In this document: positions 1 through 39,092 of the stretch, one piece after another
How the letters are laid out: every line of letters starts with the position of its first letter
Position numbering within the stretch: the first letter of the stretch is position 1
Sequence record: PZ452614.1
Direction: 5' to 3' (one strand)
Source: a phage
DNA length: 39,092 nt
Notes under the pieces: generated by a model
What the model was told of the DNA's origin: nothing
Database searches by the model: none
What the model saw: only the letters and a program-made list of their open reading frames with translations
Program-made: the position numbers and the translations under genes

Positions 1-962
1 AGACGTTTGCGGTACATACCGACAGTTATATGAAACACGTCATCCTGGCTGAAAGTACCCGCGCAATGAAGCAGGCAGTGATCGACCGTGACATACTTCC
101 GGTTCTTGGCAACAAAATGATGGCTGAAATTACCACATCGATGGTTCGTGATTTGTGTGACAGGATTGTCGAACGCGGTGGTCGGGCAACAGCAGTGCAG
201 GCCAGGGAGATCATCAGCAGCGTATACCGTCACGCCAATGACCGTGGTCATGGTTTGTTTAATCCTGCGGCTGACATTAAACCTTCGTCTATCGCCATAT
301 TTAAACCACGAGAGCGAACACTGACACCAGAAGAAATTGGCCTGTTCTTCCGCACGCTGGATGCCATTGGTGCTATGGGCACTATGAAAATGGCTTTAAA
401 GCTGGTGCTTATCACTATGGTTCGTAAAGGCGAATTCACCAACGCAACGTGGGATGAAATAGATTTTAAAAAATGGACATGGACAATTCCTTCAGACCGC
501 ATGAAGGGAAGCCGGGCGCACGTTATTTACCTGCCTAAACAGGCTCAGGATATATTGGTCGGGTTGCAGATGTGCGCTGGTGGAAGTGAATATCTGGTTC
601 CTGGTCGTTACAATTTCCGGAAGCCATTATCTAATGCCGCGCTGAACTCTCTGATCGACAGAACGGTGAAAATAATAAATGAAGATGGTGAGCATATTCA
701 GGGCTTCACCGTACACGATATGCGCCGTACAGCCAGTACGTTGTTGCATGAGGCTGGTTATCCTTCAGACTGGATTGAAAAGGCTCTGGCACATGAGCAG
801 AAAGGTGTGCGCGCCGTATATAACAAAGCGGAATACGCCAGACAGCGCGCCTACATGTTGCAGCAGTGGTCCGATATGATTGATTCCTGGATTAACGGGG
901 AGCATACGGATCTGATTCCGTTCTCCCCGTCGAAGTTTGAGAAGTGGATGGCGGGGGAATAA
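1..962 (+). CDS. int: Tyrosine integrase, P4/IntA-type, C-terminal part; continues in frame from 38804..39092 across the window junction
   Basis: No stop between position 3 and the ATG at 30; C-terminal catalytic region resembles P4-family integrases (…HDMRRTASTLLHEAGY…ALAHE…VRAVYNKAEY); frame matches the truncated ORF at the window end. Confidence 0.9.
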   Translation, partial: TFAVHTDSYMKHVILAESTRAMKQAVIDRDILPVLGNKMMAEITTSMVRDLCDRIVERGGRATAVQAREIISSVYRHANDRGHGLFNPAADIKPSSIAIFKPRERTLTPEEIGLFFRTLDAIGAMGTMKMALKLVLITMVRKGEFTNATWDEIDFKKWTWTIPSDRMKGSRAHVIYLPKQAQDILVGLQMCAGGSEYLVPGRYNFRKPLSNAALNSLIDRTVKIINEDGEHIQGFTVHDMRRTASTLLHEAGYPSDWIEKALAHEQKGVRAVYNKAEYARQRAYMLQQWSDMIDSWINGEHTDLIPFSPSKFEKWMAGE

Positions 963-2208: not shown

Positions 2209-2457
2209 TCATGCAGCGTTGCTCACGGGACGATATACACGTTGCTGAACAGGAGGTTTTTTACCCTGGAACTCTGCCGGGCTTGCTGCCTGACGTTCAT
2301 CAAGCCAACGCTCAACTTCGTCACGGTTCCATGCGCAGCGTTTGTCAGTGATATACCAGCGTTTAGGAAATTCCCCTGCGCGCTCCATACGGTCGATAGT
2401 GCTCCATGACAGTGGCACCACCGCCAGGAGTTCCTTCTTACCTAATGCACCTTTCAT
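2209..2457 (-). CDS. AlpA/Vis-like HTH excisionase/regulator
   Basis: 82 aa; …VPLSWSTIDRMERAGEFPKRWYITDKRCAWNRDEVERWL… matches the AlpA pattern; Shine-Dalgarno AGAGAGG upstream. Confidence 0.8.
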   Translation of the reverse strand: MKGALGKKELLAVVPLSWSTIDRMERAGEFPKRWYITDKRCAWNRDEVERWLDERQAASPAEFQGKKPPVQQRVYRPVSNAA

Positions 2458-24420: not shown

Positions 24421-26933
24421 TGCCAGTCGTACCAACAGTATCCGGACGTCAGGTTGAGAGTCGTGGAGTTCAGTCAGCAGGCTTGCAGACGTTTTCTCAG
24501 CAAGGTATTGGTGATGCTTTTGTTCGGGCAGGGACAGAGGCAATTGATGTTTTGGGGCAGGCAAAACAGCGTGCCAATATCGCTCTGGCTCAGGAAGCAT
24601 CTCTTAACCTCAGTCAGATAAGCAGCGATCTGCTGAATAATCCTGAAACAGGATTGCTTAACCTGAAAGGGAAAAATGCTATTGGAAAAGGCCATGAGTA
24701 TACGCAGCAGTTTGATGCTCAGGTCGAACAACTGGCTATGTCGCTGCCGGATGAACAGGCTCGTAATGCTTTCATGCAGCAGGCGCAGCAGCAGCGCATT
24801 CAGTTCACTACGCAGGCCGGGCGACACGAGATAGGGCAAATTAATGCCTACGAAGAAGGCCAGTTTCAGGCGACACTGCTGAACAATGGTAAAAATGCCG
24901 CAGCATTGTATGGCGACAACGCCGCATACGTATTGGCTAACAAGCAAACTTTCCAGCAAATTGAGGAGTACGGTGTTGCACGTGGCTGGAGCAACGAGCA
25001 AATCCAGGCCAAGAAAATCGAGTTTAAAGAGAAGGTTGCTGATGCTGCATTGTCCCAGTGGTCGGCAAACAATGCGACCGCATTCATCCAAAGTAATGGC
25101 GAGTTAAGTGATACTGCTGCTGGAGCTCGCCGTGCTGTAGCAGATAGTGACTCTTCCGAGCGTGCCCGTGGCATACGCAACAATAACCCAGGAAATCTCG
25201 AATACAGCAAAACTAATCCGTGGGTAGGCCAGACCGGTGATGATGGTCGATTTGCTAAATTCGAAACACCTGAACACGGGATTCGTGCATTAGGGCGGAA
25301 CCTGATGTCGTATCAGAGGCAGGGTATTGATACCGTCAGCGAGATAATTAATCGCTGGGCACCGCCTGCTGATAAAAATGACACTATGTCGTATATCAAA
25401 GCAGTGTGCGAACAACTTGGCGTTTCTGCTGATGAGCCTCTCGATGCATCTAATCCTGATACCCTGAAGGCGCTTTGTGCAGCCATTATCCATCATGAGA
25501 ACGGTAGCCAGCCATACAGTGATCAGCAGTTAACTGCTGGTGTCAGTGCAGCACTTGGTTTATCAACAATTCCAACCAACACCAAACGCTATACCGGTAA
25601 TGCAGCATTCGATGCGGCATCTCCTGAGGCGCAGGCAAGTTTTATGCGACAGGCGGATCAACTGCGTCGGCAGCAGCAGGCTGAATATAAAACGATGATT
25701 GACAGCCAGGTTCGCGATGCGACAGCTGCGTATATGCGTGGCGTTGAATTTCCTAACCCACCTGGTGAGGCTGATTTTATTGCAGCTTATGGAGTAAGAG
25801 AAGGAAACCTGCGATATACCGAGTTCAGAAATACGCAAATCGCCGGACAGTATATAGGCTCTTTCCGCAACATGCCGACAAGCAGCATTACAGCATATGT
25901 TGAGCAATTACGCCCGGATACTGGTGAGACAGGGGAGGGTTATGCGGCACGAGCCGCTCTTTATGACAACGTTGTGTCGGCTGCAAGTCAGGTGATAAAG
26001 CAGCGACAGGCTGATCCTGTACAGTTCTCTCTTGCCGCCGGACAGGCAAAGCCTATCGACATGAGCAATAAGGATAACTTTGGACAGAGCGTTGCCTTGC
26101 GTGCTGCTCAGGTCAGTGACCTTGCTAAGTCATATGGCACTCCACTGACGTTCTTTTCCAAAGACGAGGCCAATCAGATCGGTGTTTTCTTTCGTGATGC
26201 GCCCGTTTCCCAACAGGCAGCATATCTCGATACCATCAGGCAGAGCACTGGTGGTGGGCAGGTGTATATGTCAGCACTACAGCAGATCAGTGCCAACGCT
26301 CCATCTGCTGCCGTTGCCGGGATACTGATGGATAAGCCAGGTGGTATTTTGGCAGAAAAAAACTGGTTTAATCCGGATGTTTCCGTGTCTCCAGAAACCG
26401 CTGCGCAGACAATTCTTGCTGGCGCGGCGGCTCGTAAAGGTACTGATGACGCGAAAGGTATTCCGATGCCTAAAGATGCTGATCTTCGCCTTGAGTTTTC
26501 TGACATGGTGAAGGATGCATTTGCTGGTGATGCTCAGGGGGCATCAATGGCATACGAGATCGCAAAGGACTATTACGCTGGTGTGATGGCGAAAAAAGGC
26601 GTGGTATCAGGCGAAATTGACAATGATATCTGGAAACAGGCTGTTAACGTAGCTACAGGTGGCGTGCATGACTATAACGGAATGGGGAATGTTCTTTTGC
26701 CGTGGGGAATGTCTGCAGAGCAATTCGATAAGCAGGTTAATCAGGCTTGGAATGAACAAGTTGTTGGCACAGGGATAAAAACACCGCCTGGTCAGTATGG
26801 TTTGCAAAGTTACGGCGATAGTCAGTACCTGGTGAAACTTGGTACTGGTTATCTGCTAAAAGATGATGGTTCTCCCGTTGTTCTTGATCTGACACAGAAG
26901 CGTCAGAGATTCTCCGGAGATATTCCGCAATGA
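24420..26933 (+). CDS. Internal virion / ejection protein (837 aa)
   Basis: ATG at 24420 after GGAGGA; large Ala/Gln-rich protein with a conserved-looking RGIRNNNPGN segment. Confidence 0.6.
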   Translation: MPVVPTVSGRQVESRGVQSAGLQTFSQQGIGDAFVRAGTEAIDVLGQAKQRANIALAQEASLNLSQISSDLLNNPETGLLNLKGKNAIGKGHEYTQQFDAQVEQLAMSLPDEQARNAFMQQAQQQRIQFTTQAGRHEIGQINAYEEGQFQATLLNNGKNAAALYGDNAAYVLANKQTFQQIEEYGVARGWSNEQIQAKKIEFKEKVADAALSQWSANNATAFIQSNGELSDTAAGARRAVADSDSSERARGIRNNNPGNLEYSKTNPWVGQTGDDGRFAKFETPEHGIRALGRNLMSYQRQGIDTVSEIINRWAPPADKNDTMSYIKAVCEQLGVSADEPLDASNPDTLKALCAAIIHHENGSQPYSDQQLTAGVSAALGLSTIPTNTKRYTGNAAFDAASPEAQASFMRQADQLRRQQQAEYKTMIDSQVRDATAAYMRGVEFPNPPGEADFIAAYGVREGNLRYTEFRNTQIAGQYIGSFRNMPTSSITAYVEQLRPDTGETGEGYAARAALYDNVVSAASQVIKQRQADPVQFSLAAGQAKPIDMSNKDNFGQSVALRAAQVSDLAKSYGTPLTFFSKDEANQIGVFFRDAPVSQQAAYLDTIRQSTGGGQVYMSALQQISANAPSAAVAGILMDKPGGILAEKNWFNPDVSVSPETAAQTILAGAAARKGTDDAKGIPMPKDADLRLEFSDMVKDAFAGDAQGASMAYEIAKDYYAGVMAKKGVVSGEIDNDIWKQAVNVATGGVHDYNGMGNVLLPWGMSAEQFDKQVNQAWNEQVVGTGIKTPPGQYGLQSYGDSQYLVKLGTGYLLKDDGSPVVLDLTQKRQRFSGDIPQ

Positions 26934-37388: not shown

Positions 37389-38007
37389 ACAATTCCAGCG
37401 AGCTGCTGGTATTAGCGAGGCGCTGGCCGCACGCTGGTTCTCGCATATAACTTCTGCGATGAAAGAGTTTGGTATCAGCAAAGCTGAAGATCAGGCAATG
37501 TTTATTGCTCAGGTCGGGCATGAGTCTGGTGGTTTCATCCGGTTGCAGGAGAATTTCAACTACAGTGTCACCGGACTGGCTAACTTCGTTCGGGCTGGGC
37601 GTCTCGCTCAGGGACAGGCCAACGCATTGGGTCGCCGCGCAGGCGAACCTCCATTGCCACTCGAGCGCCAGAGAGCGATCGCCAATCTGGTGTACAGCAA
37701 ACGCATGGGTAACAATGCTCCCGGCGATGGCTGGAATTACCGTGGGCGCGGGCTTATCCAGATTACCGGTTTGAATAACTATCGTGATTGCGGAAACGGT
37801 CTGAAGGTTGACCTGCTGGAGAGCCCTGAATTGCTGGCGCATGACGAATATGCGGCTCGTAGCGCAGCGTGGTTCTTTGCCAGCAAAGGATGCATGAAGT
37901 ATACCGGCGATATTGCACGTGTAACTCTGATTATCAATGGTGGCCGGAACGGCATCGACGACCGGCGCGCGCGGTACATCACTGCCAGTAAGGTGCTGGC
38001 GGTATGA
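37378..38007 (+). CDS. Endolysin, glycoside hydrolase family 19
   Basis: …FIAQVGHESGGF… and …NYRGRGLIQITG… GH19 motifs. Confidence 0.88.
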   Translation: MEIKQFQRAAGISEALAARWFSHITSAMKEFGISKAEDQAMFIAQVGHESGGFIRLQENFNYSVTGLANFVRAGRLAQGQANALGRRAGEPPLPLERQRAIANLVYSKRMGNNAPGDGWNYRGRGLIQITGLNNYRDCGNGLKVDLLESPELLAHDEYAARSAAWFFASKGCMKYTGDIARVTLIINGGRNGIDDRRARYITASKVLAV

Positions 38008-38486
38008 TCTGGGCATTCGCAAAAGCATACTGGAAACAGTTAATTATCGTGGTGATGCTTGCTGTTCTGGTCATATCCGGAATTGTTGCTTGGAATGTGC
38101 ACGGTAGCCGTCAGTACGACGCCGGGTATGTGCAGGCGAAGGAAGAGCGCAAAGCCGAAGATGAGAAAGTTCGTCAGCACTACGAACAGGAGAAAGCGAT
38201 CAATGAACGTGAAGCGCAGCAGAGGATCGACCAGGCGCGCAATGATGCTCTTGATGCTGCCGCTCGCGCTGGCCGGTTGCAGAAACAGCTCGTTGCCATC
38301 CGTGAGCAGCTCAGGCAGTATAACGCCATTGTCGGCGCTGGGACGTCAGCCGCAGACACCGGAGTTTTGCTTGCCGACGTGCTCAGCAAATCTCTCGAGA
38401 GAAACAGACAACTGGCAGAGTATGCTGACCGGGCAGCCGAAGCCGGAAGAGTCTGCGAAAAACAGTATGACACCCTGACAAGATAG
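38004..38486 (+). CDS. i-spanin (Rz-like)
   Basis: N-terminal membrane helix, coiled-coil periplasmic domain; follows the endolysin. Confidence 0.65.
   Translation: MIWAFAKAYWKQLIIVVMLAVLVISGIVAWNVHGSRQYDAGYVQAKEERKAEDEKVRQHYEQEKAINEREAQQRIDQARNDALDAAARAGRLQKQLVAIREQLRQYNAIVGAGTSAADTGVLLADVLSKSLERNRQLAEYADRAAEAGRVCEKQYDTLTR
38242..38478 (+). CDS. o-spanin (Rz1-like) embedded in the +1 frame of the i-spanin gene
   Basis: MMLLMLPLALAGC lipobox signal; Pro/Ser-rich mature part. Confidence 0.6.
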   Translation: MMLLMLPLALAGCRNSSLPSVSSSGSITPLSALGRQPQTPEFCLPTCSANLSRETDNWQSMLTGQPKPEESAKNSMTP

Positions 38487-38659
38487 CATGGCATTTTTCA
38501 TGGTACTGATTTCCGGTGACGGTATATAAAACGGTACTAAAAAAATGAAGTTTTGGAAAAATGTTATCACTCAATTGGTTATGGTTGCCGTAAATAATTG
38601 AGTGGGAATGATTAACAGCTAACTCATAGCAACTCATTCCTATTCAGATACTAATTTAA

Positions 38660-38690
38660 CCCTCTGTTTTTACAGAGGGTTTTTGTTTTT
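38660..38690 (+). terminator. Rho-independent terminator after the lysis cassette
   Basis: Stem ccctctg/cagaggg with loop ttttta, then TTTTTGTTTTT. Confidence 0.7.
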
Positions 38691-38746
38691 ATGTATTCAT
38701 TTCTATTCACTCTACACCATATTTTTCGGCGGTACAGGTGACGGTA

Positions 38747-38761
38747 TTACCTTAAAGGTAT
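38747..38761. promoter_or_regulatory. Operator-like site upstream of the integrase gene
   Basis: TTACC-TTAAA-GGTAT (one mismatch), 43 bp before the integrase start. Confidence 0.4.
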
Positions 38762-38803
38762 ACTCTCATACCGTCATGAAAATGGTTTTTATACGGGTGA
38801 ATT

Positions 38804-39092
38804 GTGCTTACCGATACAAAATTAAAAAACCTCAAGCCACAGGACAAACTGTACAAAGTTTCCGATCGTGACGGGCTGTATGTAGCTGTGCTTACGTCAG
38901 GTACGGTCTCGTTTCGCTATGACTACCGTATCAACGGTCGCCGCGAAACACTGGTAATCGGGCAGTATGGGCGTGACGGTATCAGCCTGGCAGAAGCGCG
39001 AGAAGAACTGATTGCTGCAAAGAAGCTGCTTAAAGCAGGCCAGTCACCGGCTGCGGCTAAACGTGACGGTATCAAAAAGATTCGTGGTGCCG
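38804..39092 (+). CDS. int: Tyrosine integrase, N-terminal part (runs off the window end; continues at 1..962)
   Basis: GTG start; …LTDTKLKNLKPQDKLYKVSDRDGLYVAV… matches the P4/IntA-family N-terminus; 96 codons plus 1 nt, which completes a codon with positions 1-2. Confidence 0.85.
   Translation, partial: MLTDTKLKNLKPQDKLYKVSDRDGLYVAVLTSGTVSFRYDYRINGRRETLVIGQYGRDGISLAEAREELIAAKKLLKAGQSPAAAKRDGIKKIRGA

Follow-up and report, generated by a model that had tools for sequence, protein, structure and literature searches.

Several described integration systems stand close to the locus analysed here. In the Uetakevirus phages phiV10, epsilon15 and vB_EcoP_ZX5 the phage attachment site attP has the core attgagtgggaatgatt ~190 bp upstream of the integrase gene int, and the bacterial attachment site attB lies at the 3' end of the host gene guaA (PMC9782041). 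The same guaA position is used by GIsul2, a mobilisable resistance island that has the experimentally supported core GAGTGGGA and carries a module of int and alpA (PMC9376610). In the element KplE1 (CPS-53), which encodes IntS and TorI and has the tRNA gene argW as its target, attL overlaps the int promoter, and negative autoregulation by Int together with the excision factor has been demonstrated (PMC2951348). Lambda-type heterobivalent attP sites are recognised by an integrase with a separate N-terminal arm-binding domain and consist of a short core flanked on both sides by repeats unrelated to it, with IHF sites between arm and core and a small DNA-binding protein encoded nearby. P4-like integrases whose att sites lie in tRNA genes use the 3' end of a tRNA or tmRNA gene as attB, and attP holds a duplicate of it.

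The window, by which we mean the whole stretch of 39,092 bp that was analysed, is the phage phiV10 (Uetakevirus), with 100% identity to DQ126339.2 over 38300-39092 and over 25 kb, and it shows no sequence difference from the Uetakevirus guaA attP. It is a circular permutation in which int leaves the right end and resumes at bases 1-962; when 38804-39092 and 1-962 are joined, an unbroken ORF of 1,251 nt and 416 codons results, which has the length of phiV10 int. The original prediction, made without knowledge of the source, proposed a candidate attP and integrase control region in the noncoding gap upstream of int. This gap does exist, reaching from the Rz stop at 38486 to the GTG of int at 38804, and on the 5' side of attP are genes for a tailspike, an O-acetyltransferase, two holins, an endolysin and Rz. 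Like lambda-type sites, the locus has an integrase with an N-terminal arm-binding domain, arm-type-like repeats on both sides of a short core, unrelated to the core and conserved along with the integrase, and a gene for a small DNA-binding protein nearby; the IHF-like matches between arm and core may be another shared trait. In contrast to lambda-type sites, attP here precedes int, whose transcription leads away from the core; phiV10 integrates at the end of a protein-coding gene, its candidate sites cover ~590 bp and reach into the int frame, and its arm domain belongs to the P4-like Arm-DNA-bind_3 family. As in KplE1, int adjoins attL and points away from the core, the P' sites are directly upstream of the start codon, and the excision-factor gene (in phiV10 a candidate) is uncoupled from int; KplE1 differs in its tRNA target, in its arm motif and in that promoter and regulation were mapped experimentally. 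GIsul2 is alike in target and gene module, but it is not a phage. The features around the core are as follows.

38804..39092, + strand: 5' part of int, with a GTG start
1..962, + strand: 3' part of int, separated from the 5' part by the circular permutation of the window
38597..38613, + strand: attP core ATTGAGTGGGAATGATT, the segment identical with attB (attP = attL = attR)
38600..38606, + strand: GAGTGGG, probably the 7-bp overlap region in which strands are exchanged, between AATAATT (38593-38599) and AATGATT (38607-38613), as judged from sequence symmetry
38658..38691, + strand: intrinsic terminator with a 10-bp stem AACCCTCTGT/ACAGAGGGTT and a T tract behind it; the phiV10 and epsilon15 records annotate it
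38634..38646, + strand: copy 1 of a second repeat family, TCATTCCTATTCA, conserved in seven phages
38697..38709, + strand: copy 2 of the second repeat family, TCATTTCTATTCA, a direct repeat
38565-38577 (+), 38569-38581 (+) and 38591-38603 (-): three one-mismatch matches to the IHF consensus between the P arm and the core

The region is the attP of phiV10, which inserts at the end of host guaA, and this site has already been published. In the lysogen E. coli O157:H7 TT12B, 17 bp are common to attP, attL and attR; in a base-by-base comparison attL diverges from attP leftwards from 38596 and attR diverges rightwards from 38614. Recombination was thereby shown to fall within the 17-bp core, which is identical to the guaA 3' end. 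The core reads ATT GAG TGG GAA TGA plus TT, i.e., the last four guaA codons, the stop codon and TT, and therefore integration restores the last four codons and the stop of guaA. In TT12B the guaA coding sequence terminates within the core match and int comes after it, while the opposite prophage end adjoins yfgI. The identical 17-mer was published as the attP/attB core of vB_EcoP_ZX5 and was stated to be that of phiV10 and epsilon15 as well (PMC9782041). Thus, the attP reading of the original prediction holds: attL and attR share 38597-38613 with the phage, and the published core is the same. Its remark that no core could be identified is superseded, since the comparison with lysogen junctions that it had itself proposed as a check located the core. 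It had also named two outcomes that would speak against it, an attP elsewhere on the genome and an absence of the repeats from related phages; attP maps here, and the repeats were present in every related phage and prophage examined.

A tRNA or tmRNA fragment as attB was considered and rejected, as there is no tRNA in or near the region and the target is guaA. That no tRNA fragment is visible is due to the target being the end of a protein-coding gene, in which phiV10 departs from the P4-like integrases mentioned above. The Rfam search of 38000-39092 returned only sub-threshold matches (MicX with 28.6 bits versus a gathering score of 75) spanning the region with the terminator hairpin. The phage encodes one tRNA, the sole one in the window, a tRNA-Arg (anticodon TCT) at 14730-14806 on the - strand.

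The region was matched in 569 of 5,426 complete E. coli genomes, and among the matches listed most alignments begin at window position 38597, overlapping the guaA end; the listed prophages sit at guaA. The empty attB rebuilt from both bacterial flanks is found with 100% identity in other O157:H7 genomes and is uninterrupted in 4,570 of the 5,426 genomes. In five E. coli chromosomes the intact Rz-attP-int junction is present with three matching places per record (e.g., E. coli 97-3250, L196, NZ_CP027599.1, 2500-3300), as expected for two tandem epsilon15-like prophages at guaA; in E. coli 97-3250 the second of these putative tandem prophages has a different gene after int. Moreover, an intact attP is present on two circular “plasmids” of 41,027 bp from the duck E. 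coli strains HL15 and SF10. The one of HL15, pHL15EC-2 (NZ_CP079771.1), has the Rz-attP-int layout of an epsilon15-like phage, and both look like unintegrated phage genomes that were assembled as replicons.

Within the core, the symmetry of the two AATNATT elements marks the GAGTGGG between them as the probable overlap region. Three betaproteobacterial relatives integrated at guaA also have GAGTGGG at the end of that gene, apart from a single substitution in one of them, a Burkholderiales MAG with GAATGGG. The GIsul2 core GAGTGGGA is present at window 38600-38607, and this core as well as a junction in the autotransporter gene bigA are consistent with a GAGTGGG overlap. The latter belongs to a prophage of this family that interrupts bigA instead of guaA in E. 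coli A_5 (L195, NZ_CP195580.1, 1160-1260). There, the junction GATAATGCAGTGGGAATGATT resembles the attP core region and phage sequence starts at AGTGGG, and the insertion looks like the use of a secondary attachment site.

Between the core and int, the stem of the terminator is conserved among seven free-phage attP regions and is identical to the stem of the native guaA terminator to the right of attB (AAAACCCTCTGTTACTACAGAGGGTTTTTT, on the attR side in TT12B). In the lysogen guaA is followed by the phage-borne terminator (38658-38681) in place of the native one, and with both the core and the terminator stem identical, the phage swaps the guaA stop and terminator for look-alikes. The lysogen order guaA, core, terminator, P' arm, int means that int is cut off from the phage early promoters and insulated from guaA read-through. 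The second repeat family has the form TCATnnCTAnTCA, with one copy on each side of the terminator and positions that are mostly, not all, invariant; in an extended block of copy 2, CTATTCACTCTA, 10 of 12 positions are invariant in 15 sequences. As TCATYYCTATTCA the repeat, located between core and P' arm, is conserved throughout the enterobacterial relatives, and Buttiauxella has a similar pair. It is a candidate site for an excision factor of the AlpA family or for another accessory protein. The cluster of IHF matches at 38565-38603 is weak evidence, since the IHF consensus is not enriched genome-wide (42 matches versus 38 expected); of three IHF sites marked in the att region of the epsilon15 record AY150271.2, two correspond in position to this cluster.

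The repeats on the two sides of the core share the 9-mer TGACGGTAT, which has seven exact matches in the window versus 0.13 expected from dinucleotide-preserving shuffles (n = 100); 0 of 100 shuffles reached seven. Six of the seven lie within ~800 bp around the int start (38517+, 38739+, 38768-, 38974+, 39064+, and 224-). The seventh is an isolated copy in the structural gene region, 25330-25338 (-), far from attP. All coordinates given for the repeats by the original prediction are correct, i.e., GGTGACGGTAT at 38515-38525 and 38737-38747, ATACCGTCA at 38768-38776, and the 13-mer CGTGACGGTATCA within int at 38972-38984 and 39062-39074; its inventory was incomplete and missed the copies at 224-232 and 16-24, the degenerate tandem copies at 38529, 38727, and 38753, and the isolated copy at 25330. 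The intergenic copies are listed here.

38516..38525, + strand: predicted P-arm arm-type site P1, GTGACGGTAT, an exact copy; the homologous position is an annotated integrase site in epsilon15
38529..38537, + strand: P2, AAACGGTAC, a degenerate tandem copy 12 bp after P1 and a candidate P-arm site
38727..38735, + strand: P'1, CGGCGGTAC, a degenerate copy and candidate P'-arm site
38738..38747, + strand: predicted P'-arm site P'2, GTGACGGTAT, the best conserved copy; an annotated integrase site in epsilon15
38753..38761, + strand: P'3, TAAAGGTAT, a degenerate copy and candidate P'-arm site
38768..38777, - strand: P'4, the inverted P'-arm copy, ATACCGTCAT on the + strand

Part of this is already known: AY150271.2 holds protein_bind features named “integrase”, which are predictions, at the homologues of 38516-38525, 38738-47, 38973-82, and 39063-72, so that four direct copies, including two inside int, were already predicted as integrase-binding in epsilon15. 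Conservation was compared in an alignment of seven free-phage attP regions (phiV10, epsilon15, SPN1S, 65FD, Enterobacter BUCT554, Klebsiella BUCT711, and the circular pHL15EC-2), which have a mean column identity of 86%. A set of 15 sequences, in which eight prophages from other enterobacterial genera are added to the seven free phages, gives the same picture, with 86-88% overall identity in the region. In the P arm, the 24-nt block CCrGTGACGGTATATAAAACGGTA with its two tandem copies 12 bp apart is invariant in all seven free phages; at P2 the ACGGTA is invariant and most of the seven have AAACGGTAT. The core with its phage-side flank, GTAAATAATTGAGTGGGAATGAT, forms another conserved block of the seven attP regions. 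The P' arm follows the pattern CGGTA..TGACGGTATTACC...GGTATA, and then comes the less conserved inverted copy. The CGGTA of P'1, the TGACGGTATTACC of P'2 and the GGTATA of P'3 are each invariant in 15 of 15 sequences, and P'4 is present but drifting among relatives, with no compensating change in the direct copy. In Klebsiella, P'1 is an exact TGACGGTAT and P'3 is TTACGGTAT, which gives TGACGGTAT acc TGACGGTAT tacca TTACGGTAT with the 12-bp tandem spacing of the P arm. Because the flanking copies are exact or nearly exact there, the P' arm is best read as three tandem sites and one inverted site.

The comparison was extended to distant relatives by a scan of one genome per species. The same integrase family was found at the guaA 3' end in many enterobacterial genera and also in Chromobacterium, Aquitalea and a Burkholderiales MAG, whose Int proteins have 51-58% amino-acid identity. 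All three betaproteobacterial elements keep TGACGGTAT, with the first P' copy exactly +142 bp from the core start, which is also the spacing from the core start to P'2 in the enterics, and each carries a terminator hairpin of its own behind the core. When IMG/VR was scanned with the integrases of phiV10 and Chromobacterium, most matches were E. coli prophage predictions of 99% identity that break off where int starts; they were uninformative on arm conservation, and the betaproteobacterial P arm was not recovered from them. A tblastn of Int against plasmids, aimed at GIsul2, gave only matches of ~35% identity. In Buttiauxella sp. B2 (L094, 2080-2500) the integrase is 62% identical and is not at guaA; four TGACGGTAT-type copies upstream of int and the CTATTNAC repeats are kept, which suggests that the core target was switched and the arm specificity was not. 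The integrase of a Tepidiphilus MAG (L098, 2080-2500) is 37% identical, and ahead of its start CATGGGCACAA occurs at least six times, in direct as well as inverted orientation.

By Pfam, phiV10 Int consists of the domains Arm-DNA-bind_3 (72 bits), Phage_int_M and Phage_integrase. Residues 1-55, within Arm-DNA-bind_3, are 84-85% identical in the relatives that keep the motif, and the remainder is ~50% identical. The Tepidiphilus Int, which goes along with the different repeat CATGGGCACAA, has 42% identity in the arm-binding domain, and it is likely that arm-site specificity changed there together with the N-terminal domain. It is mainly because the motif co-varies with the conserved N-terminal domain that this domain is assumed to read the motif, and the arm-binding domain of Int most likely docks at the (G)TGACGGTAT words. 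The view of the original prediction that the repeats are arm-type sites thus gains support from comparison between genomes.

Taken together, we read the region as the attP of phiV10, served by a heterobivalent integrase of the lambda type, with the TGACGGTAT words as predicted arm-type sites, Int bound at the P' arm as repressor of its own gene and the copies inside int as extra sites, and we assign this joint reading a probability of about 0.75. According to it, strand exchange would take place across GAGTGGG, between two core-type half-sites AATNATT, while the N-terminal domain of Int would hold the (G)TGACGGTAT sites of the P arm, with two tandem copies ~80-90 bp left of the core, and of the P' arm, with three tandem copies and one inverted copy 120-170 bp right of the core. 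The IHF-like sites between the P arm and the core may bend the DNA to allow formation of the intasome. Located 28-77 bp ahead of the int start codon, the P' block would remain with int in the prophage (attL). As int is cut off from the phage early promoters and from guaA read-through in the lysogen, it would have to use a promoter within or adjoining the P' arm; a sigma-70 promoter scan of 38400-39092 with a simple consensus found no site. By analogy with KplE1 IntS, Int bound at the P' block probably represses its own gene, and the “control region” of the original prediction could likewise correspond to P' sites that overlap the int promoter and to int autoregulation. Finally, three conserved copies in the first 310 nt of int would probably be bound by Int in addition, to act as a transcriptional roadblock or as auxiliary arm sites. 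The copies inside int are the following.

38973..38982, + strand: GTGACGGTAT at codons 57-60 (R-D-G-I), an annotated integrase site in epsilon15
39063..39072, + strand: GTGACGGTAT at codons 87-90 (R-D-G-I), an annotated integrase site in epsilon15
16..24, - strand: inverted one-mismatch copy, ATACCGACA on the + strand, int nt 304-312, conserved
224..233, - strand: exact inverted copy, at int nt 512 after circle closure, not conserved

These in-gene copies leave room for a more restricted reading, in which only the intergenic copies are functional and those inside int are by-products of coding, with R-D-G-I occurring twice in the protein and no function at the DNA level. It agrees with both exact direct copies encoding RDGI in frame, with the protein sequence being conserved at the in-gene copies, with the lack of the copies at +170 and +260 in betaproteobacterial int genes and with the copy at 224-232, which is clearly not conserved. 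However, it does not account for the synonymous positions. In a comparison of 16 enterobacterial int genes, whose mean pairwise nucleotide identity is 81%, variation was seen at almost all third codon positions, and yet, within the first 570 nt, GTGACGGTATCA (nt 169-180), GACGGTAT (nt 261-268) and ATACCGAC (nt 304-311) stand out as the longest runs free of any change. The GACGGTAT beneath the copy at 39063..39072 is invariant in 16 of 16 homologues, as is the ATACCGAC of the inverted one-mismatch copy (window 16-23), and over the full gene in 15 enterobacterial homologues the longest invariant run is CGTGACGGTATCA. When degenerate codons with a conserved amino acid were considered, 8 of 10 were synonymously invariant under the motif versus 11 of 137 elsewhere (Fisher p = 6.6e-7), and all four codons 57-60 belong to the invariant ones. 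Since other Gly, Asp and Ile codons of int vary freely, codon preference is not the cause. With the synonymous positions frozen under three conserved copies in this way, the by-product explanation appears rather unlikely, although it keeps some weight. A third R-D-G stretch of Int (DRDGLY) is encoded by CGTGACGGGCT at 38866-38876, a two-mismatch relative of the motif whose GACGG is invariant across the 16 homologues.

Tentatively, and at somewhat less than even odds, we propose that the arm-type sites of Int reach ~500 bp away from the core and enter the first 310 nt of int, partly within the segment encoding the arm-binding domain, and are held by selection at synonymous sites; binding of Int within its own gene may then belong to an unusually long P' arm or may serve as a transcriptional roadblock which limits Int in the lysogen. 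The exact copy at 224-232 shows ordinary third-position variation, is exact in 2 of the 16 homologues including the window, and is probably fortuitous. As the int genes of the betaproteobacterial relatives do not have the copies at +170 and +260, sites inside int would be a feature of a lineage and not a requirement of the family; copies at +326 and +559 are restricted to the Chromobacterium/Aquitalea group. A literature search at title and abstract level for arm-type sites inside an integrase reading frame found no clear precedent.

Besides Int, another phage protein might read the repeats, namely an AlpA-family excision factor or some other regulator that controls directionality or int transcription, in which case they would not be Int arm sites. 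A gene for such a protein is present in the phage.

2209..2457, - strand: small DNA-binding protein of the AlpA family (Pfam Phage_AlpA, 24.2 bits versus a cut-off of 21), a candidate excision (directionality) factor

A homologue with 42% identity directly follows int in the motif-keeping Chromobacterium and Aquitalea, i.e., it travels with int into the Betaproteobacteria, and TorI, the excision factor of KplE1, occupies repeated sites in attL and acts as a repressor of int (PMC2951348). The word is conserved at 9 of 9 positions, which fits the N-terminal domain of Int with its 84-85% identity better than an AlpA-family protein with 42%, and in the Burkholderiales MAG the +142 copy is retained although a search of the 2.3 kb behind int detected no AlpA homologue. 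Moreover, as arm sites do, TGACGGTAT copies occur in each of the two arms and at a large distance from the core, whereas the separate conserved repeat TCATYYCTATTCA, with two copies nearer the core, is the better candidate for an excision-factor site. A reading of the TGACGGTAT words by the AlpA-family protein is thus improbable.

Likewise improbable is an action of the copies as RNA, by which 38739-38747 would pair with 38768-38776 in an int leader hairpin for RNase III processing or translation control and the in-gene copies would serve as alternative pairings. AY150271.2 does annotate an RNase III site over the homologous inverted repeat, the 106-nt leader folds moderately better than shuffles (z = -2.5) and the 9-bp stem can pair in 94.7% of alignment cells. 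In a covariation test, however, no pair changes on both sides, all variation falls in the 3' copy with the 5' copy invariant, and in five of nine stem pairs the only departures are unpaired cells. Core and terminator also stand between the P-arm copy and the remaining ones, pairing of the conserved in-gene inverted copy ATACCGACA with the direct copies would contain an A-A mismatch, and copy numbers and orientations differ in the betaproteobacterial relatives. Two independent protein sites of unequal importance fit the hairpin region at least as well.

Returning to the Int arm-site reading, attP and arm repeats were thus correctly recognised by the original prediction but were largely known, as the phiV10 attP had been published and the repeats had been predicted in epsilon15, and that finding alone neither settles nor opens any question. 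What the comparison adds are the fixed +142 spacing into the Betaproteobacteria, the apparent link between motif and Int N-terminal domain, the candidate degenerate tandem copies, the conserved inverted copy inside int and the synonymous-site constraint. The last of these is a modest new lead, and the possibility that Int binds its own reading frame is the only partly novel element. phiV10 serves as a reporter phage for E. coli O157:H7, its integrase family is common, and the GIsul2 resistance islands share the guaA target (GAGTGGGA). For those who build integration vectors, an attP defined by core, arms and terminator tells how much DNA has to be carried, and the comparison suggests that the minimal functional site may need sequence that reaches into int.
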